Below, piece after piece: positions 1 through 63,949 of a stretch of 64,000 bases of DNA (its first letter is position 1; every line of letters starts with the position of its first letter). Below the pieces are notes generated by a model. It was given only the letters and a program-made list of their open reading frames with translations, searched no databases and had not been told where the DNA came from. Source of the DNA: Candidatus Pacebacteria bacterium CG2_30_36_39 (GTDB lineage: Bacteria > Patescibacteriota > Microgenomatia > UBA1400 > PJMF01); NCBI GenBank assembly GCA_001873435.1, contig MNZB01000003.1, positions 6,427-70,426 of the forward strand, given 5' to 3'. Made by a program: the position numbers and the translations under genes.

Positions 1-2496
1 ATGGCAGGGGGTATTTACAACCACACCGAAATAGAAGAAAAATGGCAACAAGTGTGGGCCTCTTTGCGATTGTTTCAAGACACACAGCAATTGAAAGCTC
101 AACAAAAAGAGTTTTTGCTTTTTGCCTTTGCTTATCCTTCTGGATCTGGTTTACATGTCGGTCATGTAGAGTCTAAAACTGCTTTGGATATTAAAGCTCG
201 CTTTTCTCGCATGAATGGCAAAAATGTTTATTTTCCAGTTGGTTGGGATGCTTTTGGTTTACCGGCGGAGAATTATGCCATTAAAACAGGCATTCATCCC
301 GTGGAAACCACTAAAGCTGCCATTAATACTTTTAGACAGCAAATTCAAAGATTGGGCATTTCTTATGATTGGGCCAATGAAACAGCTACTAATCATCCAG
401 ATTACTATCGTTGGACACAATGGCTATTTTTACAGCTCTACAAGAAAGGCTTAGCTTATCAAGGACTAGGTATGGTCAACTGGTGTCCATCTTGTCAAAC
501 AGTCTTGGCTAATGAGCAGGTTGTTAATGGTAAGTGTGAAAGATGTGATTCCTTAGTTGAACAAAGAGATTTAAAACAGTGGTATTTCAAAATTACTGAA
601 TACAAAGATGAATTGTTGACTGGTCTTGATGATGTTGATTGGCCAGAGCCAACTAGGCAACAACAACGCAACTGGATTGGTAAAGCAAAAGGCTTGGCAA
701 TAGATTTTAGTTTAGAGGAAACTGGTCAAAAAATGACAGTTTGGACTAAATTTTGGGAAACTGTTTTTGGTGTGACTTTCGTAGTCATTGCTCCAGAGGC
801 TTTTAATAAGATGAATCTTTTGGAAAAAGTTTCCGTTGATAGACGAGCTGAAGTAGAGAAGTATCTGGAAACAGCCAAACATAAAACAGAAGAAGAACGT
901 CGGATTGGTGAAAAAGATAAAACTGGTGTGCTTACTGGATTAACAGTAATTAATCCAGTTAATGGTTCAAAAGTTCCTTTATTTATAGCTGATTATGTCC
1001 TAATGGGGGTGGGAACAGCGGTTGTTATGGGCGTTCCTGCTCATGATGAACGCGATTTTGCCTTTGCCAAAAAATATAATTTACCTATTAAGCAAGTCGT
1101 CACTTATACAGATCAAGCCTTAGATCAAGCTGTCAGGAATGGAGATCAGGCTGTTGAAGCACCAGGTTTATTGGTTAATTCTGGGGTTTTTGATGGCCAA
1201 GAAGCTTGGGGAGATGGCAAGCAAGCCATGGCAGATTGGATGATTAAGGAGGGTTTTGCTGATTGGCAAACTACTTATAAACTCAGAGATTGGTTAATTT
1301 CCAGACAACGCTATTGGGGAGCTCCTATTCCAGTGGTTTATGATCCAGAAGGACAACCACATCCAGTGAAGGAAGAACATCTTCCTTGGGTTTTACCTGT
1401 GGATGTAGATTTTAAACCAACTGGAGAGTCGCCACTTAAGTCATCTAAAGAATTTATTGAGCGCACCGAGAGGCTTTATGGAGTTGGTTGGCGTCCAGAA
1501 TTTGACACAATGGACACTTTTGTTGACTCTAGTTGGTATTTTTTAAGATATTGTGACTCAAGAAATAAGGAAAAATTTGCCGATGAACAAAAATTAGCCC
1601 ATTGGTTGCCGGTCGATCTTTATTTAATTGGTCCAGAACATATTGTGCTTCATCTTCTTTATTCTCGTTTCTTTACTAAGTTTTTGAGGGATGAGGGTTA
1701 CTTGAAGGTAGATGAACCCTTTGCCAAGATGAGACATCAAGGAATGATTCTTGGTCCTGATGGTAAGAAAATGAGCAAAAGCAAGGGAAATGTTATTAAT
1801 CCAGATGAAATAGTCGAGGAATTTGGTGCAGATACCCTCAGGGTGTATGAGATGTTTATGGGTCCACTAGAAACAGACAAGCCTTGGGATCCTAGAGCAG
1901 TAGCCGGTGTCTATCGTTTCTTACGTCGAGTTCATGGCTTGGTTTTAGATAATAAACAACAACTTCAGCATCATTTAGATCTAAAATCTTCCTTACCACT
2001 TCAACGCAAGCTTCACCAAACTATTCGTAAAGCAACTTTTAATATCCCGCAACTTAAATTCAACACTGTTATTTCAACCATGATGGAGCTTACTAATCTC
2101 TGGGAAGAAGAAAAGAAAACTGCTGGTTTCTTGAGTAATGAAGATTTATTGAGCTTTATTCTTTTATTGGCTCCGTTCGCACCATTTTTAACTGAAGAGC
2201 TATATTCTTTGTGTTTTTCAGGTCAAGAAAAGAACGATGAATATCGTGGAGTACATGTTCAATCATGGCCTATTTTTGATCCAGTTCTTGCCCAGGAAGA
2301 AAATGTCAATTTTGCTGTTCAGGTAAACGGAAAAATTAGAGCTCAGATGCAAGTAGAAGCTGGTCAAGCAGGAGAAAAAGATTTTGTCTTAAAAAAAGCC
2401 AAAGAGCTAGCTGAGGTGAAGCTTTGGCTTGAAGGAAAAGCCATTGTAAAAGAAATCTTTGTTCCAGGTAAGATTGTGAGTTTTGTTGTTAGATAA
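1..2496 (+). CDS. leuS: Leucyl-tRNA synthetase. The ORF begins at the window edge, so the true start may lie upstream.
   Basis: 831 aa. Class I HIGH motif (HVGH) and KMSKS motif. The N-terminus (EIEEKWQQVW) is typical of LeuS, and the ORF runs end to end. Confidence 0.9.
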   Translation: MAGGIYNHTEIEEKWQQVWASLRLFQDTQQLKAQQKEFLLFAFAYPSGSGLHVGHVESKTALDIKARFSRMNGKNVYFPVGWDAFGLPAENYAIKTGIHPVETTKAAINTFRQQIQRLGISYDWANETATNHPDYYRWTQWLFLQLYKKGLAYQGLGMVNWCPSCQTVLANEQVVNGKCERCDSLVEQRDLKQWYFKITEYKDELLTGLDDVDWPEPTRQQQRNWIGKAKGLAIDFSLEETGQKMTVWTKFWETVFGVTFVVIAPEAFNKMNLLEKVSVDRRAEVEKYLETAKHKTEEERRIGEKDKTGVLTGLTVINPVNGSKVPLFIADYVLMGVGTAVVMGVPAHDERDFAFAKKYNLPIKQVVTYTDQALDQAVRNGDQAVEAPGLLVNSGVFDGQEAWGDGKQAMADWMIKEGFADWQTTYKLRDWLISRQRYWGAPIPVVYDPEGQPHPVKEEHLPWVLPVDVDFKPTGESPLKSSKEFIERTERLYGVGWRPEFDTMDTFVDSSWYFLRYCDSRNKEKFADEQKLAHWLPVDLYLIGPEHIVLHLLYSRFFTKFLRDEGYLKVDEPFAKMRHQGMILGPDGKKMSKSKGNVINPDEIVEEFGADTLRVYEMFMGPLETDKPWDPRAVAGVYRFLRRVHGLVLDNKQQLQHHLDLKSSLPLQRKLHQTIRKATFNIPQLKFNTVISTMMELTNLWEEEKKTAGFLSNEDLLSFILLLAPFAPFLTEELYSLCFSGQEKNDEYRGVHVQSWPIFDPVLAQEENVNFAVQVNGKIRAQMQVEAGQAGEKDFVLKKAKELAEVKLWLEGKAIVKEIFVPGKIVSFVVR

Positions 2497-14236: not shown

Positions 14237-15694
14237 TTATAGCACAAGGTTTTTTACTGCTTCTTTAAATTGTTCACCTCTATCTTGGTAATCTTTAAAC
14301 ATACCAAAACTAGCGCTAGCTGGGCTAAGTATTATGGTGCCCTTATTTGTTGGTTGTTTTTGTAGATATTTTTCCATCAAGTACTGAGCTTTTCCTACAG
14401 CTTCTATCATGGATTCGGCAAACTCAATTTTTACTAATTCTTCTGATATTTCTTCTTCATTCAACAGTGGCTCTAGTTTTTTAAGTTCCATTTCCAATCT
14501 TTTACCGGTTGGTTGAAAAAGTATTAACCCAACCACATTTTTGTCTAAAATTGTTTTTGCCAATTCAACAAAATCTTGCTGTCTTTCATAGCCACCGGCA
14601 ATTAATACCACTGGTCCATTAAAACTTTCCAAGGCTTTAATGGCGGCATCTGGCATAGTTGAAAGCGAGTCGTCAAAATAGGAGGTATTCTTTCTTTCAA
14701 GCACAAATTCTAGGCGATGAGGAAGTGACTTAAAACTTTCCAAACTATTTCTAATTTGTTCAGCAGAAAGATTAAAGATAGTTCCTACAATAATTGCTGG
14801 CATAGCATTTAGAACATTGTGCTCGCCACGTAACGGTAGTTTATTAATGGGTAAAATCTCTTCGGTTCTTTGCAACTGATCCTTGCGTAAAATAATGCCA
14901 TTGCGAACGAAAACAACAGCGTCAGGGCCTTCTGTGGTGGAAAAACGCAGATGTTTGCCAGCACTAAGTTGGGCAATCATTGACGAACCTTTAAATTCTG
15001 GATTAAAAATTACAAAATCATTAGCTGATTGAAATTGAGTGATTGGCATTTTTGCTTGTTGGTAACTAGTGGTATCAGCATAATAATCCAGGTGCTCACT
15101 AGTGACGTTTTGCACTACTGCAATATGTGGGCTAATAGTCAAAGTTTCTAATTGGTGACTCGATAGTTCGCAAACCACTAAAGAATCTGAGTTTATTTCT
15201 GGTAAAAGATCTAAAGCTGGTTGGCCAATATTACCGACTAGTTGTGTATTTAAATCATTTGTTTGTAAAACATGATGGATGAGTGCTGAGGTGGTACTTT
15301 TACCTTTGGTGCCAGTGATGCCGATAGTTATTCCTGAGCATAATTCAAAAAAAAGTTGTAGATGAGAAGTAAGTTTACCCCCACTTCTAATAGCTTCGGC
15401 AATTTCTGGAGTAGTTTGAGGTATACCAGGACTCTTAAAAATTAATTTATAAGCACTAAGTTTTGATAAATGATCTGGACCAAAGTGAAGTGATAAATTT
15501 TTGTCATTATTTAATATTTCTTGTTGTTGAGCAGAGAATTTTTCTAATGGTTTGCGATCAGCTAGTCCTAGTTGTAAGTTTGGAAATTTTTTTCTTAAAA
15601 AAAGATAGGTTGACCAACCTTCGCGACCCATTCCAAGGATTATTGTTGGAGTAGTTTCTATTACTTTGAGAAGGCTAGAATCTTTGGTGTTCAT
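14237..15694 (-). CDS. murD: UDP-N-acetylmuramoyl-L-alanine--glutamate ligase (MurD family).
   Basis: Mur ligase ATP-binding loop GITGTKGKSTTSALIHHVL with N-terminal MurD-like Rossmann region. It is translationally coupled to the upstream ORF by an ATGA overlap. Confidence 0.75.
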   Translation of the reverse strand: MNTKDSSLLKVIETTPTIILGMGREGWSTYLFLRKKFPNLQLGLADRKPLEKFSAQQQEILNNDKNLSLHFGPDHLSKLSAYKLIFKSPGIPQTTPEIAEAIRSGGKLTSHLQLFFELCSGITIGITGTKGKSTTSALIHHVLQTNDLNTQLVGNIGQPALDLLPEINSDSLVVCELSSHQLETLTISPHIAVVQNVTSEHLDYYADTTSYQQAKMPITQFQSANDFVIFNPEFKGSSMIAQLSAGKHLRFSTTEGPDAVVFVRNGIILRKDQLQRTEEILPINKLPLRGEHNVLNAMPAIIVGTIFNLSAEQIRNSLESFKSLPHRLEFVLERKNTSYFDDSLSTMPDAAIKALESFNGPVVLIAGGYERQQDFVELAKTILDKNVVGLILFQPTGKRLEMELKKLEPLLNEEEISEELVKIEFAESMIEAVGKAQYLMEKYLQKQPTNKGTIILSPASASFGMFKDYQDRGEQFKEAVKNLVL

Positions 15695-17130
15695 GTTAAA
15701 TCCTTACTATCTTCACAGAGTTGTTGGGCTGCAGTTTGGATAATTTTAGTTAATTTTTCATTTAGGTTATGTTGATTATTCCAGAAGCATAGTAGTTGTT
15801 TGGCAGTTTTTTCTAAGTCAGGTATATTTTGTAGGTTATCTTTCCAAACTTTATCTAGAACTATTGGCAATTTTTGGTTTGGGTGGAGTTTTTGGAATTT
15901 TTTAATGCTCAAGAAGAAAGCAGCCTGAGTTTCTTCATGGGTACCAACACACTCAAAAGGTTTATTTGCATCACGTCCCATTAGAGCATTGGCTTCTTTT
16001 ACCATGCTTTCTTTTGCAAATAAATTTTCTGGGAAGATTGGTCCTATTAGTTCTTGTTCAGTTAAAAAAGGGTAGAGAACGGTGAAAACAAAAAGACATT
16101 TTGGACATTCACAGCACCAAATATTTTGTTGTTGTCCTCGATTGCAGCTACGAAAAGTAGCGTGAAATTGTTTTGCTTGGGCAAATAATCCGGCGATTTG
16201 TAATTCTGTTAATGGTCTCAAGATAGAAAGGTATTCAGGGTTATTGTTTTCTGGCTTATTTATAAATTCAGAGACATATTTTCTAAATTTATTTTCAAAA
16301 TCAAAAGTTTTGGAGTATTGATGATTAACGATTGTGCCTTTATATGGCACATTACCTTCATTGGCGGAGAATTCATTGGCAACCAAAATTTGGTTATGAC
16401 CAGCTAAGAAAGCTAATAGACTAGATTCAAAAGCCAATCTGGCGCTAAAGGGAGTATGGCCATTGAGATAACCAGCTTTGTTTAGAGCAAATAACTGGGG
16501 ATCAAAAATTCTTTCAATGGTAAAAACTTTTTTAGCTAGGCTTTTACTTGCCAAGTTTTGTGCTGCTGGTGATTGGGGGAAGCTGAGGAGAATGTCGTAA
16601 GTTAATCCTGCTTCATCTAGCAGGTTGAGTAGTAAGCCTGAATCTTTGCCTCCGCCCACAGGAATCAAATATGAGGAAGAGTTTGTTTCCTTGGGAAGAA
16701 GCTCTTTTTTATCAGGAATATTTTTGATTTCCGTTTTGTTTATAAATTTTACAAAATTTGTTGGTCTAAAGTCGATTTGATTGGTGTAAAAAAACTCTCC
16801 CATGCTATCGATTAAAACTTCTTGCCACCAAGAGCATTGATCTGGATTTAGTTCTCCAGCTTGGATGATTATTTCTGGTGAAGCTGCTGTTTTCCAATAG
16901 CTGAAAAGCTCGATTAAGCCAAGGTGAAAGATCCAATTTTCTAGTTGTTGGAGATCGATTTGTGCAAGTTGTTTTTGAGTGAGAGGTGAAAAAATGATTT
17001 TTGGTTGAAAGACTATGTCTGGTTCCAAGAGAAAATCAAAAACAACCCTCAATGAGTCATCTTCAATTTTCCAGTTATAACCTCGGTAAACAAAGCGAGG
17101 GTGTTTTTTTCTCAAGGCAGCAACTGTCAT
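15691..17130 (-). CDS. PP-loop (adenine-nucleotide alpha-hydrolase-like) protein with a Cys cluster; a candidate MurL-type ATP-dependent epimerase.
   Basis: SGGxDS-like PP-loop (PVGGGKDSGLLLNLL) and a QueC-like Cys cluster (SCNRG...WCCECPKC). It has a 4-nt overlap with murD. The MurL assignment is inference. Confidence 0.45.
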   Translation of the reverse strand: MTVAALRKKHPRFVYRGYNWKIEDDSLRVVFDFLLEPDIVFQPKIIFSPLTQKQLAQIDLQQLENWIFHLGLIELFSYWKTAASPEIIIQAGELNPDQCSWWQEVLIDSMGEFFYTNQIDFRPTNFVKFINKTEIKNIPDKKELLPKETNSSSYLIPVGGGKDSGLLLNLLDEAGLTYDILLSFPQSPAAQNLASKSLAKKVFTIERIFDPQLFALNKAGYLNGHTPFSARLAFESSLLAFLAGHNQILVANEFSANEGNVPYKGTIVNHQYSKTFDFENKFRKYVSEFINKPENNNPEYLSILRPLTELQIAGLFAQAKQFHATFRSCNRGQQQNIWCCECPKCLFVFTVLYPFLTEQELIGPIFPENLFAKESMVKEANALMGRDANKPFECVGTHEETQAAFFLSIKKFQKLHPNQKLPIVLDKVWKDNLQNIPDLEKTAKQLLCFWNNQHNLNEKLTKIIQTAAQQLCEDSKDLT

Positions 17131-20515: not shown

Positions 20516-22483
20516 ATGTTCCAAAACAAGCATAGTAATTCGATATTGAATCGAGTTTTTGGATTTTTTTCTAGCCTTTTAATCTCATTATTATTTTTTG
20601 GTCAGATCCAGCCTGTCTTTGCGGAAGAAACCAAAGAATATTCTATTCAAGGAACTGATATTCAGGCAGAAGTCAGTCCAAGTGGTTCAATGGATGTAAT
20701 CGAGCAGCGAGTTTATAGTTTTACTGGAGATTATAGATTTGCTTATCAACGCATAGAGAAAAATCCAGATCAAAAAACAGCACCAGGCAGAGTAGAGCCA
20801 TATCAAATTAGAATCAAAGGTATTTGTGAAAAAGATTATTGCTACCGATTTGTTTACCCATCAGAGGTAAACATGACTGACCGTCGAGCAAATACACCAG
20901 GAACATATACAGTTATTCAAGATAATAATGAAGTTTATGTCCAATGGCATTTCAAAGCTATTAATGAAGCCAAGATTTTTACTATTCAATATGTTGTTGA
21001 TAATGCAGTCACCTTACATAGTGATATAGCAGAGATATATTGGCAATTTATTGGTAATAAATGGGAAGTACCTCAGAAATATGTGACGGTTAATGTTAAC
21101 TTGCCATATGGAATAAATGATAAAGATATTGTTGCTTGGGGGCATGGAGAATTAAAGGGTCAAGTTAGTATTCCAAATGCTCAAACAGTTAAATTTGCGG
21201 TTGATAAGGTTCGAAGTGGCAAGATGTTAGAAGCACGCATCTTGGTACCCAAAATGAGCTTTTATGATGGAGCACAAGGCCATTTTTCCAAAGCACAAAT
21301 AGAAGAGCAGGAGTCCAGTTTTATAGCAGAGACCAAAAAATGGTTAGATAGAAATTCTATTTTTGTAAACTTACAAAAGTTTTTAGTAGCTCTGGCCTGG
21401 ATTTTTGGAGCTCAAATATTATTTCGATATTTGTTTTTTGAGTATCAAAGAATACCAAAGGCCAATCAGGCAGATCGGGTTTGGGAGCCACCAAGTAATT
21501 TAGAACCGGCAATTGTTGAGTTATTGGTTAGGCGCACTCGTTCTCTTTCAACAAAATCTTTTACAGCTACTGCTTTATCTTTAGTACAACAAAAGTTTGT
21601 CAAAATTATTCGCAGTGATGATAAGAAAGGTTTTTTCGTCAAAAAATATGAATATGGCTTTGTTAAGGCAAAAGAACCAAAAAAACTAACGGTATTGCAG
21701 CAGGATGTTTATGATTATCTTTTTGATAAAGCAGCTAAAAAAGAAGATATTTTATGGTTCAAAGATTTAATTAAATATAATAAGGCTCATCCATCTGGAG
21801 CACATAATTTCTTTAAGAGTTTAGAAAAATCGGCTTTCCACCAGGGAGAAAAATTGGATTTAATAGCCAAGCCAGTTAAAGGTGGCATATTTAAAAAAAT
21901 AGCACCGTTGTTAATTGTTTATTTGTTATCAATTGGTAGCATAGTTTTTCAAGTTCTATGGATAGGTGATGAATATTTTCAACCAGATGCCTTGTTGATA
22001 GCAGTTACTGGCTTATTCATTCCAATCATGTTGAGTTTTATAGCAATTATGAAATCGATCACAGGTTTTCGTTATACCGATAAGGGTCTATTGGAAACTG
22101 CTCAGTGGCGAGCTTTTAAAAAACACATGAATGATTATCGTAAAACCAAGGAATATCCAATTGACTCAGTAATTTTATGGGAGAAATATCTTGTGTATGG
22201 CACTCTTTTGGGAGTATCAGCTAAGGCATTAGCTCAGTTGCCTGTTAATTTTGATTTAAATGATCCGGCAGTAACAGGATATTGGGTGGGCTATAGTCAT
22301 GGTGGTGGTTCCACGGATTTTACAAATTCATTTAGTGGAGTTTCCGATTCTTTGTCATCGGTTTTACATTCATTTTCTACTAGTTCCACTCAGAGTTTCG
22401 GAGCTAGTGGAGCCGGGTCTTCTGGTGGATTCTCTGGCGGAGGCGGCGGTGGAGGTGGCGGCGGAGGTGGTGGAGCAGGTTAA
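20516..22483 (+). CDS. DUF2207-like membrane protein with a Gly/Ser-rich C-terminal tail.
   Basis: Signal/TM at the N-terminus, a large extracytoplasmic domain, then TM helices and a GGGGGGGGGGG tail typical of DUF2207 proteins. Start placed at Met29 of the ORF. Confidence 0.5.
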   Translation: MFQNKHSNSILNRVFGFFSSLLISLLFFGQIQPVFAEETKEYSIQGTDIQAEVSPSGSMDVIEQRVYSFTGDYRFAYQRIEKNPDQKTAPGRVEPYQIRIKGICEKDYCYRFVYPSEVNMTDRRANTPGTYTVIQDNNEVYVQWHFKAINEAKIFTIQYVVDNAVTLHSDIAEIYWQFIGNKWEVPQKYVTVNVNLPYGINDKDIVAWGHGELKGQVSIPNAQTVKFAVDKVRSGKMLEARILVPKMSFYDGAQGHFSKAQIEEQESSFIAETKKWLDRNSIFVNLQKFLVALAWIFGAQILFRYLFFEYQRIPKANQADRVWEPPSNLEPAIVELLVRRTRSLSTKSFTATALSLVQQKFVKIIRSDDKKGFFVKKYEYGFVKAKEPKKLTVLQQDVYDYLFDKAAKKEDILWFKDLIKYNKAHPSGAHNFFKSLEKSAFHQGEKLDLIAKPVKGGIFKKIAPLLIVYLLSIGSIVFQVLWIGDEYFQPDALLIAVTGLFIPIMLSFIAIMKSITGFRYTDKGLLETAQWRAFKKHMNDYRKTKEYPIDSVILWEKYLVYGTLLGVSAKALAQLPVNFDLNDPAVTGYWVGYSHGGGSTDFTNSFSGVSDSLSSVLHSFSTSSTQSFGASGAGSSGGFSGGGGGGGGGGGGGAG

Positions 22484-22532
22484 TTTTTTTATTAGTGTTA
22501 AAATATCTCTTTTATTAAAATAATTAATCAAA

Positions 22533-23192
22533 ATGGCAGAACTTTGGCAGAAAATACCAGAAAAATATCGTAATTCAGTAGAGTTTAGTTTGAAGAGGAC
22601 TAGCACATTGGGTAGGCGAATGTATTCACGTTTTCAGGAGCTTTTTGGTTATAAAAAACAAGAAAAAGAACCTGGTCCTGAATTTGAAATCAAAATTAAT
22701 CAGTGGACAGTGAGAGTTTGGAAAGATCGTTATGAAATAGTTAATCTTGATGAAGACGGAGAGACTCGGAGTTTTTATTTATTGAAAAGTGGTAAGTATG
22801 GTCAGCCATTAATAGAAGCAGAACCAGACAGAGCATTTGAAGCTCCAAAAGAAGTAATTTATGTTAATGCCAAAGGTGAAAAAGTAGATCCACCTAAAGA
22901 AAAGATTTCTGGAATAATTTGTCAAGAAGAAGATGGTTCAGTTGCTCATCGTTTCAGTTTGTCTAATAAAAAAGCTCCCAAATTTAAACCAACTGAAGAC
23001 GGGATAGAAATAGAAGTGGCACAAGGAGAAGGGGAGAATACAACAATTGAACGTTGGTATTTGACTGTGCTTTTTGATAAAGATGGTAATAGAATTCAAA
23101 ACCATGATGGTTACTATGGGAGAGTTAAGCCTTCGGTTGTAAAAATACTAGAACTACAAGATCTGAATTTTGTTAAATTAGCTGGTGAATAA
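22533..23192 (+). CDS. Hypothetical protein (219 aa).
   Basis: Intact ORF with no recognisable motif. Confidence 0.4.
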   Translation: MAELWQKIPEKYRNSVEFSLKRTSTLGRRMYSRFQELFGYKKQEKEPGPEFEIKINQWTVRVWKDRYEIVNLDEDGETRSFYLLKSGKYGQPLIEAEPDRAFEAPKEVIYVNAKGEKVDPPKEKISGIICQEEDGSVAHRFSLSNKKAPKFKPTEDGIEIEVAQGEGENTTIERWYLTVLFDKDGNRIQNHDGYYGRVKPSVVKILELQDLNFVKLAGE

Positions 23193-23201
23193 TAATTTTT
23201 T

Positions 23202-23230
23202 TTGCATTTTAAATAAAAAGATCTATAATA
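23202..23230 (+). promoter_or_regulatory. Sigma70-like promoter TTGCAT-N17-TATAAT driving the thrS leader.
   Basis: TTGCAT at 23202-23207 and TATAAT at 23225-23230 with an exact 17-nt spacer. The ATG of the leader ORF lies 9 nt downstream of the -10 box. Confidence 0.5.
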
Positions 23231-23238
23231 CCAACCAG

Positions 23239-23283
23239 ATGAAATCTTTAATTGTAATTACCACCAACACTACTACTCTCTAA
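23239..23283 (+). CDS. Putative thrS leader peptide MKSLIVITTNTTTL: 14 codons, 5 of them Thr (ACC ACC AAC ACT ACT ACT).
   Basis: ATG sits almost at the predicted transcription start (leaderless). The stop TAA is followed directly by an AGGGG segment that can pair with the terminator 5' arm. Confidence 0.45.
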   Translation: MKSLIVITTNTTTL

Positions 23284-23318
23284 TGAGGGGTGGCTGTGTA
23301 TGGTTGTAATCACATAAC

Positions 23319-23341
23319 GCCCCTTGAAAGAGGGGTTTTTT
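23319..23341 (+). terminator. Attenuator terminator hairpin (CCCCT-TGAAAG-AGGGG followed by T6), 46 nt upstream of the thrS ATG.
   Basis: Hairpin plus T-tract located inside a 5' UTR. The alternative pairing of 23286-23290 (AGGGG) with 23320-23324 (CCCCT) would preclude terminator formation. Confidence 0.55.
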
Positions 23342-23386
23342 CGTATCAAAAACCAAGTACAATAGAAAATACTTAAAGAGGAACTT

Positions 23387-25210
23387 ATGGCAGAAAAAAA
23401 CAAATCATTTAATCAATTATGGAACATTCGTCATACCGCTGAACATGTCTTAACTTTGGCAATGCAACAACTATATGGCAAAGACAAGATTATTATGGCT
23501 ATGGGCCCTGCTACTGAAGAAGGTTTTTATTTTGACTTTGATGCTCCAGCAGATTTTAAAATCAGTGAGATTGATTTTCCTAAAATTGAAAAACAAATGA
23601 AAAAGATCATTCAACTAAACTTTTTCATGCAACGAGTGGAGATATCGGTAGAAACAGCTAGAAAACTATTTGCTGACAATCCATATAAACAAGAGTGGTT
23701 GAATGAAATAGAAGGAGAAAAAGCTCCAGTTACTGTTTATTTAACTGGTGCCAAAGATCAAGTAGATGCCGATGAAGAATCATTAAAAGCTGGTAAATAT
23801 GAAGGTTTGAAATCTGCTTTTGTAGATTTATGTAGTGGCCCACATGCAGAGAGAGTAGGGGAAATAAAAGCTTTTAAATTATTAAGTGTTGCTGGTGCCT
23901 ATTGGCGAGGTGATGAGAAAAATAAGATGCTAACTCGTGTTTATGGCACAGCATTTACTTCACAAATAGAATTAGATGAATATGTTAATAGAATAGAAGA
24001 AGCCAAAAAAAGAGATCATCGTAAGTTGGGCAAAACTTTGGATCTCTTTACTTTTTCTGAGTTAGTTGGTCCTGGCTTGCCTTTGTGGACACCCAAAGGT
24101 ACTCAGCTAAGAGTATTACTAGATGATTTTGTTTGGGCGTTACGTAAAGCTAAAGGTTACGCAAAGGTTGAAATTCCTCATATTACTAAGAAAGATCTTT
24201 ATCAAACCAGTGGTCATTGGGATAAATTTGGTGATGAATTGTTTCGCATGGTAACTCGTGAAGGTCATGAGTTTGTAATGAAACCAATGAACTGTCCTCA
24301 TCACACTCAAATCTTTGCTCGCAAGCAAATGAGCTATCGTGAAATGCCACAGCGCTATGCTAATACCACAATGGTTTACCGTGATGAACAAACCGGAGAA
24401 TTGAACGGTTTATCTCGTGTAAGAGCTATTACTCAGGATGATTCTCATGTATTTTGCCGTCAAACTCAGGTTCAGGATGAGGCAAATGCTGTTTGGGATA
24501 TAGTTGAAAAGTTTTACGGTGCTTTTGGATTTGAGTTACAAGTTCGTTTATCACTTCATAATCCTGCTGCTCCAGAAAAATATTTGGGTGGAACTGAAAG
24601 ATGGTTAGCTGCAGAGGAGACCTTACGTGAGCTAGCTCGTTTTAGAGGTGTTAAAGCAACTGAAGCAGCGGGTGAAGCAGCTTTTTATGGTCCCAAAATT
24701 GATTTTATGGCATTTGATTCATTGGGTCGTGAGTGGCAAGTAGCTACTATTCAGCTTGATTTTAATATGCCGGAGCGTTTTGATCTTTCTTGTGTGAATG
24801 AACAAGGAGAAAAAGAGCGGATTGTAATGTTGCATGTTGCAATCATGGGTTCAATAGAACGTTTCTTATCAATTTTAATTGAACATTATGGCGGAGCATT
24901 TCCATTTTGGTTAGCTCCAGAGCAGGTAAGAATTTTACCTATCGCAGATCGACATTTTGAGTTTGCTCAAGACTTACAAGAGAAGCTTAAAGAACTCAAT
25001 ATTCGTGTTGAAATTGATCTGAGAAGCGAGCGCTTGCCAGCAAAAATTAGAGCTGCCCAATTAGAAAAAGTACCTCACATGATTGTGATTGGTGACCAGG
25101 AATTAGAAGCAAAACAGGTTAATGTTCGCTCACGTGACGGCGAACAACAGAGTTTATCGGTTGAAAAATACTTAGAGCAAGTTGTTGAATTGGCAAAAAC
25201 AAAGAAATAA
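23387..25210 (+). CDS. thrS: Threonyl-tRNA synthetase, lacking the N-terminal TGS domain.
   Basis: 607 aa with an N2 editing-like domain (HTAEHVL), class II catalytic core and an anticodon-binding C-terminus. The SD is aagagga. Confidence 0.9.
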   Translation: MAEKNKSFNQLWNIRHTAEHVLTLAMQQLYGKDKIIMAMGPATEEGFYFDFDAPADFKISEIDFPKIEKQMKKIIQLNFFMQRVEISVETARKLFADNPYKQEWLNEIEGEKAPVTVYLTGAKDQVDADEESLKAGKYEGLKSAFVDLCSGPHAERVGEIKAFKLLSVAGAYWRGDEKNKMLTRVYGTAFTSQIELDEYVNRIEEAKKRDHRKLGKTLDLFTFSELVGPGLPLWTPKGTQLRVLLDDFVWALRKAKGYAKVEIPHITKKDLYQTSGHWDKFGDELFRMVTREGHEFVMKPMNCPHHTQIFARKQMSYREMPQRYANTTMVYRDEQTGELNGLSRVRAITQDDSHVFCRQTQVQDEANAVWDIVEKFYGAFGFELQVRLSLHNPAAPEKYLGGTERWLAAEETLRELARFRGVKATEAAGEAAFYGPKIDFMAFDSLGREWQVATIQLDFNMPERFDLSCVNEQGEKERIVMLHVAIMGSIERFLSILIEHYGGAFPFWLAPEQVRILPIADRHFEFAQDLQEKLKELNIRVEIDLRSERLPAKIRAAQLEKVPHMIVIGDQELEAKQVNVRSRDGEQQSLSVEKYLEQVVELAKTKK

Positions 25211-25213
25211 AAG

Positions 25214-26467
25214 CTATTCGTGTCGATTAAATTCTTTGGCAACTTCTGCTTCAGTGATTTTGTCTTTTTGCAGTGCAAGACTACCAAGAATTGCTTTATC
25301 CAAGGTAAATGGTGAGAGCAAGGAAATTACTTCCAGGGTAAAAATTGATAGTTCAAAAGCACTTGGAATTTGGTTGGTGATGAAAAAAGCACCCAAACCA
25401 ACCAAAGTAGCAGTGAACAACGAGTCTTTAAACATTTCTTTTTGAGTTTTGTCAATTATTTTGATATCGATGCCCATTTTTTCAGCAAGATTTCCCTTGC
25501 GAATAATTCTAGGTACACTGTGCCACATCATTGTTATGAAGGTAGCAATAGCAGTCAGCGTGTTGAAGGTAGTATTTTGAACACTTACATCTCCACTAAA
25601 AATTCCCAACTTCCAGCCTATGGGAAAATGTTTTACTAAAAACCAGGCTATTAGCATGAAAAGTAATAAGTATCCGGTGGCGTAACGACTCAGAATATTT
25701 GGTTCGATATTTTCAATAGTAACTGTTGGTGTTGGTAAAGATTCAGTGTTTTCTTCTGTTTTTTTTGCTTCTTCATCAATTTTAGCTTTTAGTTCTTCTT
25801 CTGCTTTTTTATTTTCATTGGCTCGTTTGAAAATAATAATTAGTAGTTGTAAAACTATGAGTACAATCCAAGTTGGTAGGAGGACTTTCCAGCCAAAGTC
25901 AATAGTTTTGGTGACAGCTGGATAAGGAATTTTGAACCAAGTATCCAATAGTGGGTAATCTGGATACTTAACCCATTTGTATAAGTGCTCTGGATTAAGT
26001 GGTTTGCTGTAAAAATCAGTTAAAAACAATCTTCCCAATGAGATAAATGAAACTAGTTGCATCACAAAATCTACGGCATAAAATAAAAAGGTGGTGTTTC
26101 CCTGGCGAAAACGTTTTTTTAAAATAAATGCTTGTTGCGTTTCAGATTTTATTTTTTCAACATTATGTTGAAACTCTTGAATGTTGTTTGATTTAACTAC
26201 TCTAATAATACGAAAGGGGATCATAAGAATGGTTTGGAAAAGTCCCAGCATTATCACTGAGATCCACATGCGATTTGTAAAAGAATAGAAGAAAAATAGA
26301 AAACTGGCATAAAATTGATTCAAAATACCAGTGAAAAAAGCATAAATTAGAAAAATTATGGCTAAGGCTGAGGCAATCGTGCCTAGGTCTGGAATTCTGA
26401 CAAAACTACTAACTTTGCTCTCTTGAGAAATTGCAGTATTGCCATTTTTTTCAGAAACACTATTCAT
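25214..26467 (-). CDS. Polytopic membrane protein, tentatively a divergent YidC/Oxa1-family insertase.
   Basis: TM helix with Arg (ILMIPFRIIRVV), K/Q-rich loops, a hydrophobic hairpin and a F..DFY..PLNP segment resembling the YidC F..W..DLS..DP region, plus a charged coiled-coil insert. Weak. Confidence 0.3.
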   Translation of the reverse strand: MNSVSEKNGNTAISQESKVSSFVRIPDLGTIASALAIIFLIYAFFTGILNQFYASFLFFFYSFTNRMWISVIMLGLFQTILMIPFRIIRVVKSNNIQEFQHNVEKIKSETQQAFILKKRFRQGNTTFLFYAVDFVMQLVSFISLGRLFLTDFYSKPLNPEHLYKWVKYPDYPLLDTWFKIPYPAVTKTIDFGWKVLLPTWIVLIVLQLLIIIFKRANENKKAEEELKAKIDEEAKKTEENTESLPTPTVTIENIEPNILSRYATGYLLLFMLIAWFLVKHFPIGWKLGIFSGDVSVQNTTFNTLTAIATFITMMWHSVPRIIRKGNLAEKMGIDIKIIDKTQKEMFKDSLFTATLVGLGAFFITNQIPSAFELSIFTLEVISLLSPFTLDKAILGSLALQKDKITEAEVAKEFNRHE

Positions 26468-31593: not shown

Positions 31594-31666
31594 GCCTTTG
31601 TAGCTCAGGTGGCAGAGCGCAGTCTTGGTAAGACTGAGGTCTCGGGTTCGAACCCCGACAAAGGCT
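31594..31666 (+). tRNA. tRNA-Thr (anticodon GGU).
   Basis: Acceptor GCCTTTG/CAAAGGC, anticodon stem CAGTC/GACTG with loop TTGGTAA, T-arm GGTTCGAACCC. CCA is not encoded. Confidence 0.8.
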
Positions 31667-31702
31667 CATGGTTTAGCTCTTTAATTTTGTTGTTGTATAA
31701 AA

Positions 31703-31785
31703 GCCAAGGTACTGAAGTGGTCAAACAGGGCAGTCTGTAAAACTGCTGGCATACGCCTTCGTAGGTTCGAATCCTTCCCTTGGCA
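31703..31785 (+). tRNA. tRNA-Tyr (anticodon GUA).
   Basis: Acceptor GCCAAGG/CCTTGGC, anticodon loop CTGTAAA, long variable arm, T-loop TTCGAAT. Confidence 0.8.
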
Positions 31786-31794
31786 CTTTTTTGT

Positions 31795-31867
31795 GCCAAC
31801 TTAGCTCAGTTGGTAGAGCAACGGTTTTGTAAACCGTAGGTCGTGGGTTCAAGTCCCACAGTTGGCT
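31795..31867 (+). tRNA. tRNA-Thr (anticodon UGU).
   Basis: Acceptor GCCAACT/AGTTGGC, D-arm TAGCTCAGTTGGTAGAGC, anticodon loop TTTGTAA, T-arm GTGGGTTCAAGTCCCAC. Confidence 0.8.
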
Positions 31868-31894
31868 CAGTGACTTAAAATTTACTTTCTAAAA

Positions 31895-33713: not shown

Positions 33714-33784
33714 AGGGCCATAATGTAATGGTAGCATGAGGGTCTCCAAAACCCTTCGTCAAGGTTCAAGTCCTTGTGGCCCTG
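33714..33784 (+). tRNA. tRNA-Trp (anticodon CCA).
   Basis: Acceptor AGGGCCA/TGGCCCT, D-stem ATGT/GCAT, anticodon stem AGGGT/ACCCT with loop CTCCAAA, T-arm CAAGG-TTCAAGT-CCTTG, discriminator G. Confidence 0.8.
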
Positions 33785-38041: not shown

Positions 38042-39346
38042 ATGACAGAGCAAAGCACTAATCAAGTAAATGCCTCGCCATTGCAATCAACTAGCTCTGC
38101 GCCAGTAGAGTTAGAACCTCAAGCAAAAACGAGTTTTTTAGCAAAAATCATTGGAAAATGGAAAATTATTGTCGGTGGCATTCTAGGCATCGCTTTATTA
38201 GCTGTAACTAGCTATTTTGTTTATGCTAATTTTTTTATTTCTCCAAAACACCTGCTTGGAGAAGCTATGGAAAAGTTTGATGTTGATTCAATCAAAATTG
38301 GTTTTCAAGCCTCTGATGATACTTCGGATGTTTCAGGAACAATGATTGCTCATGAAAAAGGGCTTTCTAAAATTGATGCAAACCTAAGCATGTTAGAAGA
38401 AGGTGTGCGTCATGAATTTAATTTTAATTTCTTAATTGATGAGGAAAATGTTTATTTTAAGATGAATTACTCATTGATGGAATTAATTTTAATGCAGGCA
38501 GACCAAGTAGTTCCAGGAATTTCTTCAACAAATACCTTTACTTTGTTAAAACCAGTTTTAACTGGAAAATCATGGCTCCACGCCGCTGTTCCTCCAGTTG
38601 CTGATACAACCAGCGATGATAAAGCAGAGGAATATGCTGAAGAATGGGAGAAGTTTGGTGATGAATTGGGTGAAGCGATAATAATCAAAGATTATAAACG
38701 CAACCAGAAAGTAGACGGAGTTACATATAAAGTTATTTCTTTGGGAGTGGATAAAGTAAAATTGCTAACAGCAATTGATTCTCTCAAAGATCTTGATTTG
38801 GAAGTCAGCGTTTCAGATATTAATACTCTAAAGAAATCTGTTGAAGACATGGGTGAGCTTAAAGAAACATTGGCTGTAGTCTATATCGATAAAAAAGGCT
38901 ACATAAGAATGGCTGATCTTTATGCTCCACAAGGATCTAGTGAGTCAATTCAGGATGCAATTGATCAAGAAGCAGCTGCTAGTTCTCCTCTTTTAGCCCA
39001 GTTTTCTCAAATGACTTCTTTCTTCCAACCAGATAAGAAAGCCAAAGCTGGAGAATCAGTGAAGTTTATGACAATGACATTTGATGACTACGGAACAGCA
39101 GAAGAGCTTTCTGCTCCTTCTAATAGCGTTGAGTGGGATGAGGTGATGTTATATGCACAATCAGAGCTAATGCCAATTTTTTATCAATATATGATGATGC
39201 AACAGGCTCCTGGAGCCGGTGGGGTAGAACTTCCTACTTATCCACCACAATATCCAGGAAATTCATCGGGTGGTGTGCCATCGTATCCAATAATCGAGAG
39301 CCCTGATTATGGTAGTACTATGCCAGGTCAAGCAGCTCCATATTAA
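38042..39346 (+). CDS. Hypothetical membrane-anchored secreted protein with a Pro/Tyr-rich C-terminus.
   Basis: N-terminal TM anchor and a 434-aa extracytoplasmic region. C-terminal PTYPPQYPG...PSYP. Confidence 0.45.
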   Translation: MTEQSTNQVNASPLQSTSSAPVELEPQAKTSFLAKIIGKWKIIVGGILGIALLAVTSYFVYANFFISPKHLLGEAMEKFDVDSIKIGFQASDDTSDVSGTMIAHEKGLSKIDANLSMLEEGVRHEFNFNFLIDEENVYFKMNYSLMELILMQADQVVPGISSTNTFTLLKPVLTGKSWLHAAVPPVADTTSDDKAEEYAEEWEKFGDELGEAIIIKDYKRNQKVDGVTYKVISLGVDKVKLLTAIDSLKDLDLEVSVSDINTLKKSVEDMGELKETLAVVYIDKKGYIRMADLYAPQGSSESIQDAIDQEAAASSPLLAQFSQMTSFFQPDKKAKAGESVKFMTMTFDDYGTAEELSAPSNSVEWDEVMLYAQSELMPIFYQYMMMQQAPGAGGVELPTYPPQYPGNSSGGVPSYPIIESPDYGSTMPGQAAPY

Positions 39347-40163: not shown

Positions 40164-41537
40164 ATGCCCAACCAATCGACCAAATTGCCGAATCCTCCTA
40201 GTTTGATTCGTACCCTTGGCCCTTCTTTCATTCTCTTAGGCCTAGCCTTGGGTAGTGGCGAGTTAATCTTATGGCCTTATTTATCTGCCAAATATGGATT
40301 GGGTTTATTGTGGGGTGGACTGCTTGGTATTACTTTTCAATTTGTTTTAAACACTGAAACTATGCGTTACGCATTGGCTTGGGGAGAAAGTGTTTTTGTT
40401 GGTTTTAGAAAAATGTCTCGTTTAATACCAGCCTGGTTTATTATCTCAACTTTTATTCCTTGGTCTCTACCAGGATTTTCTTCTGCATCTGCCCAAATCT
40501 TAACTAGATTCTTTCCTTTTTTAAATGAAAAAATAGTCGCTATTATTTTATTACTATCAGTTGGAGTAATTCTAAGCACCGGCAAGAGTTTGTACAAAAC
40601 CATTGAGCAAGTTCAAAAACTGATTATTTATCTTAGCTTACCTTTTATCTTTACTTTAACCTTTTTCTTTTCTTCAACAGTGGAATGGAAAGAATTAGCA
40701 TGGGGATTAATTGGCAGAGGTGATGGCTGGTGGTTTTTTCCAGCTGGATTATCATTAACAGCTTTTCTTGGTGCTTTTGCATATTCCGGAGCTGGGGGAA
40801 ATTTAAATTTAGCTCAATCTTATTACATCAAGGAAAAAGGCTTTGGTATGGGTAGATACTCAGCAAAAATCAAGTCGTTATTTACCAAAGGCTCTGAAAA
40901 AATACCTCTAAATGGACAAACATTTATTGATTCTCCAAGCAATCGCAAGCTTTGGCATAAATGGTGGACTTTAATAAATACAGAACATTTTTTAGTTTTT
41001 TGGTTATTGGGTTTCTTAACAATTGCAGTCATGGCTGTTTTATCAAAATCACTTGTTTATGGAGCAGACGTAGGAGAAGGTTTGGCCTTTTTATATGCCC
41101 AAGCTAGTGCTATTACAACTCGTTCTTTTGCTTTTTTTGGTACTAGTTTCTTGTTTATTGCTGCTCTAATGCTATTTTCCACTCATCTTGGAATTCTAGA
41201 GTCCTCATCTCGCATTGTTTCAGAGAATATTTATTTATTTTTTAATCGTGGCCATAAATTTAAAGCTAATCTATCTCTAGGTTTTTATGTAGCACTCTGG
41301 TTGCAGATTTTTCTAGGAATTATAATTTATTCAATAGGTTGGCAAGAACCAAGGTTTCTCTTAACGCTTTCAGCAACTCTAAATGCTGGCGCAATGATGG
41401 TTGCTTTTCCATTGGTATATTTACTAAACAAAAAACACTTGCCAGCTCATTATCAACCTAGCTGGTGGCGTAAAGTTTTATTGCTATTAGCAACGATATT
41501 TTTTATTGGTTTTATGGCAATTACATTGCTGAAGTAG
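40164..41537 (+). CDS. Nramp-family-like transporter (divergent).
   Basis: 11-12 TM helices. The N-terminal LGPSFILLGLALGSGELILW aligns with the Nramp LGPG...DPGN region, but DPGN is replaced by GSGE. Confidence 0.45.
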   Translation: MPNQSTKLPNPPSLIRTLGPSFILLGLALGSGELILWPYLSAKYGLGLLWGGLLGITFQFVLNTETMRYALAWGESVFVGFRKMSRLIPAWFIISTFIPWSLPGFSSASAQILTRFFPFLNEKIVAIILLLSVGVILSTGKSLYKTIEQVQKLIIYLSLPFIFTLTFFFSSTVEWKELAWGLIGRGDGWWFFPAGLSLTAFLGAFAYSGAGGNLNLAQSYYIKEKGFGMGRYSAKIKSLFTKGSEKIPLNGQTFIDSPSNRKLWHKWWTLINTEHFLVFWLLGFLTIAVMAVLSKSLVYGADVGEGLAFLYAQASAITTRSFAFFGTSFLFIAALMLFSTHLGILESSSRIVSENIYLFFNRGHKFKANLSLGFYVALWLQIFLGIIIYSIGWQEPRFLLTLSATLNAGAMMVAFPLVYLLNKKHLPAHYQPSWWRKVLLLLATIFFIGFMAITLLK

Positions 41538-62473: not shown

Positions 62474-63949
62474 TTATTGAATTCTAAAATTATATTTTAG
62501 ATAGATATCATCCAAAATTTTACCGCTTTGATTGATGATTTTCAGAATTGAAGTGTGATTTGGGCCTTGATGAATCATTTCTGTTGTTCCGAAAACAGAC
62601 AAAACTTTTGCTAATTCCACATCTGTATCATTAAAAACTAAATAGTTAATATCCTGATTTTTAATTATTTCAGTAATTTTATTTTCCAGATCTTTATTGT
62701 TATATTTCCAGCGTTCTGTAAAAAGAAAAACTTTATTTTTTTGGTAACCATTGTTGAAGAAAAAGAAGTAGTCAGTAAAGTTTTGATCTTCAAAAATTAG
62801 CAATCTAGGTTGTGGTAGTTTTTCATCTTTTGCCTGGATTTGTGAGGTTTTTTTCTTAAAACTATCATAGAAAACCCTGTTTTCTTTCAAGGTTGTTATT
62901 ACACTAAGATGAAAAGGAATAATCACTATTATTAAAGTTGTAGCTATGATTATTGGTATAATTTTTTGATATTTTTTGCTTTTTATTTGGGGGAAGATAA
63001 AGTCGCTAAACAAGAGAAAAATAGGTATTACAGATAACAAGTGGCGGTAGGGTAGTAACGATCCCTCAGCCCAACGAATATAGAGAATTTGTGCAATAAC
63101 TAAAGCTGAAAAATTGACAAGTAGTTTTGAGTGACTATTTTTGGTGAATATAAATTTACCCATTGCTGCCCAAAAAATTAAAAAAGTAGCTATACCAGCC
63201 AAGCCAAACCTTTCATTGGGCCAGATATTTTTGTATTTGAAAGAAGAAATCCAGTTTTTTTGTTCTTCTCCTGGTAAAACATAATTTGCATCAACATAAG
63301 ATGCTAAAGTATTCATACTTAGATTCAAAGTTTCTGAGGCTTTTTTTGAAAAAACAGGAGGATCAAAAAAGATAAAAGGAAGTCTTATGAGATGAGTAGC
63401 TATTTGTTTTGGAGAAAATATTGCTACTGTAATTTTTCTAAAGCCATTGCTTCCCAATGGAGAGCCAAAATGTTGCCAGTTATTAAAGACAGTATATGAG
63501 TAGCCTGAAATTAAAAATAAAAATATAAAAGTAACTATAATTTTTTTTGCTATAAACCAATAGTTTTTTAGTCCTTTGAGTACTAAAAATGGGAGCAATA
63601 AATATACTAAGGTATTAATCTTAATCATTACCAAAGTGAGGCTAGTGATGCCAATTAATAGGCTTAGGTTTTTTATTTCAAGTTTTTCTTTAGTAGTAAG
63701 TAAAGTAAAAATGTAATAAATATAGCTTAAGAGTGTTGTTGTAATCCAAAGTTCTTGAATCAATGATTTAGAGAAAAAGCTAAAAATATAAGGGGAGGTG
63801 ACAAATAACAAAGTAATCATTAATCTAAGCCTTCTTCTGTTGGAAATTGCTTTAAATGCTATTTGGAAAAATACGACGCCAAGAGGTAGAGATAGCCAAT
63901 AAAAGATTTGAGCAATTTTTTCATGAACATTAAAGATCAATGGCCACAT
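62474..63949 (-). CDS. GT-C fold membrane glycosyltransferase (ArnT/PMT-like). Possibly N-terminally truncated by the window edge.
   Basis: Twelve or more TM helices in 491 aa with a GT-C-like layout. The reading frame stays open upstream of the first Met to the end of the window. Confidence 0.4.
   Translation of the reverse strand: MWPLIFNVHEKIAQIFYWLSLPLGVVFFQIAFKAISNRRRLRLMITLLFVTSPYIFSFFSKSLIQELWITTTLLSYIYYIFTLLTTKEKLEIKNLSLLIGITSLTLVMIKINTLVYLLLPFLVLKGLKNYWFIAKKIIVTFIFLFLISGYSYTVFNNWQHFGSPLGSNGFRKITVAIFSPKQIATHLIRLPFIFFDPPVFSKKASETLNLSMNTLASYVDANYVLPGEEQKNWISSFKYKNIWPNERFGLAGIATFLIFWAAMGKFIFTKNSHSKLLVNFSALVIAQILYIRWAEGSLLPYRHLLSVIPIFLLFSDFIFPQIKSKKYQKIIPIIIATTLIIVIIPFHLSVITTLKENRVFYDSFKKKTSQIQAKDEKLPQPRLLIFEDQNFTDYFFFFNNGYQKNKVFLFTERWKYNNKDLENKITEIIKNQDINYLVFNDTDVELAKVLSVFGTTEMIHQGPNHTSILKIINQSGKILDDIYLKYNFRIQ

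Follow-up and report, generated by a model that had tools for sequence, protein, structure and literature searches.

A candidate leader-peptide transcription attenuator upstream of thrS in Candidatus Pacebacteria and its relatives

How does a bacterium from the candidate phyla radiation (CPR, or Patescibacteria) adjust its supply of an aminoacyl-tRNA synthetase? The question is raised by the region in front of thrS, the gene for threonyl-tRNA synthetase (ThrRS), in the 64,000-nucleotide (nt) stretch of Candidatus Pacebacteria DNA analysed here (the window; G+C content 35.7%). The CPR accounts for a large share of bacterial diversity, and its members have tiny genomes and are usually unable to make most amino acids. 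To our knowledge, very little has been learned about their gene regulation, which is thought to be minimal, and most lineages have no cultured models. Based on evidence that is wholly computational, we propose that the region before thrS is very probably a classical ribosome-mediated (leader-peptide) transcription attenuator, which tunes thrS to the supply of charged tRNA-Thr. The parts of this element, the mutual exclusivity of its structures, their dependence on ribosome position, their conservation and their covariation were shown in silico and through comparison; we infer the transcription start, translation of the leader, termination in vivo and the response to threonine.

All features of the element lie on the forward (+) strand. 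Promoter P1 (23201-23229) comprises a −35 box TTTGCA (23201-23206), a 17-nt spacer and a −10 box TATAAT (23224-23229); read in this way it matches ten of the twelve consensus positions and is the top promoter-like site within 22400-25600. The initial annotation had described the promoter as TTGCAT-N17-TATAAT. The promoter itself stands, with the correction that TTGCAT (23202-23207) is an alternative −35 box with a 16-nt spacer to TATAAT, and that a spacer of 17 nt is obtained only with TTTGCA. Nine nucleotides after the −10 box, an ATG at 23239 opens a 14-codon open reading frame (ORF), MKSLIVITTNTTTL, which together with its stop codon TAA (23281-23283) spans 23239-23283; start, stop and five Thr codons are as first read. 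The regulatory codons ACC ACC AAC ACT ACT ACT (Thr Thr Asn Thr Thr Thr; 23260-23277) consist of two Thr codons ACC at 23260-23265 and three Thr codons ACT at 23269-23277, separated by the Asn codon. All five Thr codons (ACC and ACU in the RNA) are decoded by tRNA-Thr(GGU), whose gene is located at 31594-31667. This gene belongs to a tRNA cluster Thr(GGU)-Tyr(GUA)-Thr(UGU) at 31594-31868 of the window, and a tRNA-Trp gene is found at 33714. No Shine-Dalgarno (SD) sequence precedes the leader ORF, and since the −10 box ends only 9 nt before the ATG, the transcript is predicted to be leaderless or to carry a 5′ untranslated region of 1-3 nt.

Downstream of the leader ORF lies an intrinsic terminator, GCCCCTT-GAAA-GAGGGGT followed by T6 (23319-23341), with a G+C-rich stem of 7 base pairs (23319-23336). 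The 7-mer GAGGGGT is present at 23285 and 23330, as had been pointed out, and has one further copy in the 64 kb (31330). The terminator ends at 23341, that is 45 nt 5′ of the thrS ATG (23387); hairpin and T-tract had been annotated correctly, and the distance of 46 nt given for them is off by one. The SD sequence of thrS, AAGAGG (23376-23381), is situated 35 nt past the terminator in an unstructured stretch. The gene (23387-25210) encodes a ThrRS of 607 amino acids with the Pfam domains tRNA_SAD, tRNA-synt_2b and HGTP_anticodon, which matches the ThrRS of Candidatus Pacebacteria bacterium CG10_big_fil_rev_8_21_14_0_10_36 at 100% identity, and it is monocistronic, as the following gene is encoded on the opposite strand. 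On the other side, no terminator was found between the stop codon of the upstream gene (22533-23192, stop at 23192) and the leader.

The 110 nt from 23236 to 23345 fold at −36.5 kcal/mol in RNAfold (z = −4.2), and none of 200 shuffled sequences was equally stable, which indicates that the structure of this region is more than chance. The minimum-energy fold consists of two hairpins, the terminator (3:4) and a preceding hairpin (1:2) that the initial annotation had overlooked. The 1:2 hairpin is 62 nt long (23253-23314; −23 to −24 kcal/mol); in it, the Thr codons pair with a G/U-rich segment after the stop, and the leader stop codon sits in the loop. Its 5′ arm, segment 1 (23253-23280), overlaps codons 5-14 and hence all Thr codons. 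Segment 2, GAGGGGTGGCTGTGTATGGTTGTAATCACA (23285-23314), is able to pair either with segment 1 or, via the 8 nt at its 5′ end (23285-23292), with segment 3. The second pairing yields an antiterminator hairpin (2:3; 23285-23325), in which GAGGGGUG (23285-23292) is paired with CGCCCCUU (23318-23325) and an inner UGUG/CACA helix is formed in addition. The antiterminator reaches −17.0 kcal/mol (z = −2.7) and the terminator alone −11.2 kcal/mol. Both make use of the same strand and are therefore mutually exclusive, which agrees with the two competing structures originally predicted. According to these folding models, the complete classical 1:2 / 2:3 / 3:4 attenuation layout is present, so that the likeness to the logic of the Escherichia coli thr, pheST and his attenuators extends to the full four-segment architecture. 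The RNA that surrounds the thrS SD sequence (23342-23410) folds at −0.4 kcal/mol, less stably than 192 of 200 shuffles.

To describe how a translating ribosome could select between these structures, the ensemble probability of the terminator stem was calculated from the partition function at equilibrium, while the RNA was kept unpaired from its 5′ end up to a point 12 nt beyond the beginning of the A-site codon. The free RNA forms the terminator with a probability of 0.97. With the A site on codons 2-5 the value is 0.94-0.97, and it declines to 0.69 at codon 6 and to 0.00-0.01 at codons 7-12 (I T T N T T), before it returns to 0.91 at codon 13, 0.96 at codon 14 and 0.97 at the stop codon. Segment 2 is thus masked by a ribosome that has reached the stop codon and stays free when the ribosome is on the regulatory codons, and the simulation reproduces both of the outcomes first postulated for the leader, termination after complete translation and loss of the terminator upon stalling at Thr codons. 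The low-probability window persists when the footprint edge is varied from +8 to +16 nt, moving by about one codon. When the upstream 80 nt were dinucleotide-shuffled and the terminator was kept, the switch did not appear in any of 150 sequences, three of which reached 0.05 or less at any position. Among 25 distinct orthologous leaders, about 20 behave alike in the simulation, with the switch centred on the Thr run of the leader in question.

Two ThrRS scans, one of GTDB genomes and one of metagenome contigs, provided 160 loci (L001-L160) for comparison, all of them Patescibacteria-like and with ThrRS identities of 46-85%; 131 distinct Patescibacteria thrS upstream regions were compared. An ATG-initiated mini-ORF with at least five Thr in seven codons occurs in 22 of the 131 regions, and no amino acid other than Thr reaches five of seven codons in any of them. 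Close relatives possess the same device in diverged sequence, with leader peptides such as MIIDSFITITTTTTLS, MKLMCSITTTTTTIPS, MSVFFLTTTTTVITR, MLFHNATTSTTVTTR and MKLLHIVTTTTTTSP. A Woesebacteria relative with 58% ThrRS identity encodes MKVKSFVTTTTTTTFPV, and still more distant leader peptides are MNTRNCFTTTTTSCP (Roizmanbacteria), MSNCTTTTTTTNPQ and MSLIELVHIITTTTTER. The distance from leader stop to terminator is 22-37 nt throughout the relatives. A covariance model (R1), which was built from 12 sequences and gives the window a score of 82 bits, adds members with only three Thr, for example MKLYVIRTTTCLL and MKKIARIETTTNPR. Taken together with the ORFs of at least five Thr, these additions indicate that the element is present at roughly one in four of the thrS genes sampled, and orthologous leader ORFs are found in about 30 relatives. 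Conservation in related genomes had been named beforehand as a test of the attenuator model and, like the other computational and comparative tests named with it, speaks for the model: across relatives whose ThrRS identity ranges from 85% to 46%, the mini-ORF and the hairpins are maintained and co-vary, and the attenuator stays with thrS despite differing upstream genes. Locus L115 has a leader of this kind (MSKLLLVNCTTTTPT) before the threonine synthase gene thrC, which is followed by thrS, and this arrangement ties the element to threonine.

In some relatives the Thr leader is parted from thrS by genes of the same orientation. These are threonine synthase at L115 (positions 100-1490), an unknown protein and a creatininase-family protein at L029 (1141-2974), and an unknown protein of 155 amino acids at L144 (618-1211). 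Four further loci (L032, L034, L040 and L045) have leaderless Thr-run ORFs, for example MKKLRIAFTTTTTTTP, that end in ACCCC-N-UAA-GGGG, with the stop codon in a small hairpin loop and no recognisable terminator before thrS; the output mechanism may differ in these cases. On the minus strand of L053 (2880-2779), a leader-like element shares the architecture of the Thr leaders, scores 33 bits with model R1 and encodes MIVKYAVNNSKKHLS, which is not Thr-rich. It is located upstream of genes for an ATP-grasp protein and an M20 peptidase, possibly a LysX/LysK-like or a graspetide-type locus.

Covariation was evaluated on an alignment of 30 sequences (A2) guided by the covariance model. RNAalifold on a plain MAFFT alignment (A1) had recovered only part of the terminator on account of indels, and A1 was replaced by per-sequence folds, the covariance-model alignment and a duplex permutation test. 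In A2, 72.5% of the cells are paired, compared with 61.0% in shuffles, and double changes occur in 27 of 32 pairs. The covariation score of 0.261 exceeds both the shuffles (0.124; 0 of 500 as high) and the slid-partner controls (0.07-0.10). Helix 1, the 1:2 hairpin, has double changes in 17 of 22 pairs, and the terminator stem (helix 3) has compensatory changes at all 7 pairs. These figures lean towards the model, as A2 was aligned to the model's own structure and is made up of related sequences. The antiterminator was not included in the model structure behind A2; its columns score 0.247 compared with 0.163 in shuffles (0 of 500). Two independent tests lend the antiterminator support. In each of the 29 orthologous leaders, segment 2 forms an antiterminator with the 5′ arm of the terminator, at energies of −12 to −22 kcal/mol. 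In an alignment-free comparison, the leaders' own 2:3 duplexes have −14.28 kcal/mol and permuted duplexes −10.27 ± 0.44 kcal/mol, a difference not attained in any of 10000 permutations.

The pattern of conservation within the mini-ORF bears on whether it is translated. The six codons of the Thr run have a conservation period of 3 nt, with 1-2 bits at A and C and 0.25-0.7 bits at the wobble base. ACG accounts for 5 of 158 leader Thr codons versus 20% in thrS genes. The N-terminal residues of the leaders are unconserved as amino acids and co-vary with segment 2 as RNA. An SD sequence is absent before the leader ORFs of the window and of all relatives compared. In 26 of 28 cases the −10 hexamer ends 6-9 nt before the leader ATG, and many of these promoters have a perfect −35 box TTGACA; this spacing, together with the lack of an SD sequence, predicts leaderless or near-leaderless leader mRNAs. 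A similar layout is found at the synthetase gene itself: 42 of the 139 distinct thrS genes of L001-L160 (about 30%) have a near-consensus −10 box 5-9 nt before their own ATG and no SD sequence, with a sharp peak of the spacing at 6-8 nt. Leaderless starts thus plainly appear to be in use in Patescibacteria, including those of thrS mRNAs.

Based on these structures and considering the classical mechanism known from E. coli thrL, pheM-pheST and hisL, we propose the following course of events, in which (i) transcription from P1 would begin about 0-3 nt from the leader AUG and the 14-codon ORF would be translated as a leaderless message; (ii) with plentiful Thr-tRNA, the ribosome would reach the UAA (23281-23283) and its footprint would cover GAGGGGUG, leaving segments 3 and 4 to pair, so that the terminator would halt RNA polymerase 45 nt before thrS; (iii) with scarce Thr-tRNA, the ribosome would stall with its A site on codons 7-12 (I-T-T-N-T-T), occupying segment 1 and leaving segment 2 free, and the 2:3 hairpin (−17 kcal/mol) would form before segment 4 is made, blocking the terminator and allowing transcription of thrS; (iv) read-through into thrS would raise ThrRS and restore charging. 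If the leader is not translated, segment 1 would pair with segment 2 and the terminator would form again, making off the default state. Owing to this untranslated default of 1:2 and 3:4 and to the lack of a separate terminator for the upstream gene, the hairpin probably also ends the upstream transcript. The unstructured surroundings of the thrS SD sequence point to termination, rather than masking of the SD sequence, as the output. A tRNA-like operator or sequestration of the SD sequence at thrS was ruled out on the same ground, and no structured hairpin resembling an anticodon arm, as in an E. coli-type ThrRS operator, is present at the thrS SD sequence.

How does the element relate to known systems? 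At gathering thresholds, Rfam reports only tRNAs in the whole window. In a permissive scan with 4227 families, the two best matches are Phe_leader (RF01859; 20.1 bits, E = 0.38) and Thr_leader (RF00506; 19.9 bits, E = 0.14), both full-length and both below the gathering score of 55. Scores of about 20 bits against a required 55 make the element an analogue rather than a member of either family, and for Phe_leader they amount to no detectable homology. T-box (RF00230) is absent among the matches to E = 10 in 23150-23420, in keeping with the earlier judgement that the leader is too short to be one, and is not found at its gathering score in the whole window or in 19 relatives that lack the leader. 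The upstream region of L036, T-box-like by eye, has no Rfam match at E ≤ 1. A close counterpart is the experimentally established pheM-pheST attenuator of E. coli, which likewise is a leader-peptide attenuator on an aminoacyl-tRNA synthetase operon with a short ORF rich in cognate codons, alternative hairpins and an intrinsic terminator. However, it concerns another amino acid, gene and phylum, and the start of pheM is SD-led whereas that of the CPR leader appears to be leaderless. E. coli thrL shares the run of Thr codons that senses charged tRNA-Thr and the 1:2 / 2:3 / 3:4 logic; in contrast to the element described here, it controls the biosynthetic genes thrABC and not thrS, and it also has Ile codons and an SD sequence. 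T-boxes, the usual control of aminoacyl-tRNA synthetases in Firmicutes, and the E. coli thrS operator also raise the synthetase when cognate charging is low, but the sensor of the CPR element would be the translating ribosome.

A Thr leader on thrS had been called unusual in the initial annotation, which overstates the case. Besides the textbook pheST system, leader-peptide attenuators have been predicted for Streptomyces trpS and leuS (PMC1262725), and RNA sequencing of S. lividans yielded the candidate leaders alaL-alaS, thrL-thrS, trpL2-trpS and leuL2-leuS (PMC8079986). The S. lividans thrL is leaderless, as we infer for the CPR leader, but contains only two Thr codons, and its authors saw no clear Rho-independent terminator (PMC8079986). 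The CPR elements, by contrast, combine 5-7 Thr codons with a canonical terminator and the full set of three helices. The Streptomyces systems resemble those of the CPR in placing a leader ORF before aminoacyl-tRNA synthetase genes including thrS, although the two sets belong to unrelated lineages and are not similar in sequence. A study on mycobacteria describes leaderless polycysteine short ORFs as Cys-responsive attenuators (bioRxiv 10.1101/834739); they share with the CPR leader the leaderless short ORF, the codon run for one amino acid and the role as a cis-acting sensor, and differ in amino acid and targets. On leader-peptide attenuation in CPR/Patescibacteria, nothing relevant was found in the literature searched. 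The thrS attenuator therefore represents a known mechanism that is apparently undescribed in the CPR and absent from Rfam and the literature searched.

Between terminator and thrS SD sequence, a conserved sequence, AAAACCAAGTACAAT (23349-23363), includes TACAAT (23358-23363) and opens the question of a second promoter. It is kept in all Pacebacteria-clade relatives, 11-56 nt from the thrS ATG, and in one subclade TGGAAC is present 16 nt upstream of its TACAAT; no match to a −35 box exists in this genome, where the corresponding position falls in the T-tract. In two sister loci of L004 (L083 and L084; 71% ThrRS identity), P1, leader ORF and terminator have been lost as one block about 80 nt before thrS (start at 1501), to judge from the sequence a naturally occurring deletion of the attenuator. 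These loci retain the flanking inverted repeat TAGTACTAC...GGTACTAT and TGGAAC-N16-TACAAT. TACAAT is probably the −10 box of a proximal promoter P2 that gives basal thrS expression, and the element, together with the loss of the attenuator in L083 and L084, suggests that thrS can be expressed without the attenuator. These observations, like the lack of a terminator between 23192 and the leader, would also suit a rival explanation, in which the hairpin and T-tract only terminate the upstream gene, thrS is transcribed solely from the TACAAT promoter and the Thr mini-ORF is fortuitous. We consider this improbable. A plain terminator needs neither an antiterminator nor a 1:2 hairpin. The mini-ORF, the Thr run, the spacing of promoter and ATG and the three helices are all conserved and co-vary across lineages that differ in the gene upstream, and the enrichment is limited to Thr. 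In the window, moreover, the T-tract takes the place of a −35 box for P2. P2 and the attenuator could also coexist: P2 would add basal expression and would neither abolish nor contradict the attenuator.

The repeats in the two arms of the 1:2 hairpin invite a different interpretation, namely an RNA switch that binds protein or tRNA. E. coli ThrRS represses its own mRNA via mimics of the anticodon arm, and in T-boxes a codon-like triplet recognises the tRNA anticodon. With GGU/UGU repeats in segment 2, which are Thr-anticodon-like, and ACN repeats in segment 1, ThrRS might bind the NGU-repeat segment, or tRNA-Thr might be bound via the ACN repeats in a divergent T-box-like manner. This too has a low probability in our view, as no T-box match is obtained even at E ≤ 10, about 100 nt are too short for a stem I plus antiterminator, and the thrS SD sequence lies in unstructured surroundings. 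Furthermore, the ATG, the in-frame stop codon in the loop, the fixed distance from −10 box to ATG and the 3-nt period with a free wobble base indicate translation. Less probable still is a switch whose output is not transcription termination but the translation of thrS or the stability of its mRNA. The leaderless Thr-run ORFs of L032, L034, L040 and L045, which have no recognisable terminator, do indicate that a differing output exists in the wider family, but the hairpin and T6 of the window form a canonical intrinsic terminator, its stem co-varies among relatives, and the thrS SD sequence follows 35 nt further on in unstructured RNA. Least probable, finally, is a functional small peptide or a precursor of a ribosomally synthesised and post-translationally modified peptide (RiPP). 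The position of the ORF is conserved and Thr-rich peptides can be RiPP cores; conservation of the peptide, however, is confined to the Thr run, the N-terminal residues vary freely and change together with segment 2 as RNA, no modification enzyme is encoded nearby, and the element is linked to thrS or thrC-thrS.

Several points nevertheless weigh against a ribosome-mediated attenuator. Translation of the SD-less leader ORF rests on a predicted transcription start 0-3 nt 5′ of the AUG, and −10 box and ATG are 9 nt apart in the window, the upper limit of the 6-9 nt range. The Thr run of the window is interrupted by Asn and contains five Thr, fewer than in most relatives. The equilibrium simulation ignores the kinetics of folding and transcription, and the covariation was scored on an alignment fitted to the model structure with phylogenetically related sequences. 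Given the putative P2, the attenuator may control only part of thrS transcription. The leuS gene of the same genome, which begins exactly at position 1 of the window (1-2496), lacks a comparable leader: the 485 nt upstream of it (L161:2516-3000) contain no Leu-run ORF, no terminator and no visible Rfam-type element. A scan of the window for other amino-acid-run mini-ORFs beside terminators likewise gave nothing else convincing. As to the surroundings of the locus, both neighbours of thrS (22533-23192 and 25214-26467) and four other sizeable ORFs of the window (15691-17130, 38042-39346, 40164-41537 and 62474-63949) have no Pfam match.

A second family of leaderless leaders with terminators was observed in the relatives, with aromatic-rich peptides encoded at L029:5880 (...GFYFTFFAS...), L041:5966 (...NWFYFYFTS...), L053:5886 (...AYFWFYFTS...), L105:4362 (...WVFFYFTS) and L128:2831 (...NFWFYFTT...). 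Each has a promoter TTGACA-N17-TAnnAT that ends 6-8 nt before the ATG. These leaders are located after thrS-infC-rpmI-rplT, and the genes directly following them encode DAHP synthase (L029 and apparently L105), dehydroquinate synthase (L041) and a PfkB kinase (L053). The peptides resemble those of E. coli pheM and pheL, and the family has the appearance of a Phe/Tyr/Trp attenuator that serves the shikimate pathway in the CPR.

The same layout of promoter, leaderless mini-ORF and terminator thus occurs before thrS in about a quarter of the sampled lineages, before a thrC-thrS operon and before shikimate genes for DAHP synthase and dehydroquinate synthase (with peptides such as ...FWFYFTS). It is conceivable, if just short of an even chance, that leaderless leader-peptide attenuation is a general amino-acid-sensing device across Patescibacteria rather than a curiosity of thrS. 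If so, transcription and translation would be tightly coupled in these organisms, starting with 70S initiation on the nascent 5′ AUG, and one or more RNA families absent from Rfam would thereby be defined.

In summary, our analysis describes a known mechanism in a new setting, and its value lies in a well-supported new family and in a view of regulation in an uncultivated radiation rather than in a new mechanism. At about 110 nt the element is self-contained and hence amenable to in vitro testing, and model R1 offers a means of annotating the family in metagenomes. The conserved Thr attenuator supports the notion that CPR cells monitor the charging of tRNA-Thr and adjust the supply of the synthetase, and that they rely on coupled transcription and translation with leaderless initiation. 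The CPR would thereby have reached the same end as T-boxes and the autoregulation of ThrRS by way of the oldest known attenuation logic.

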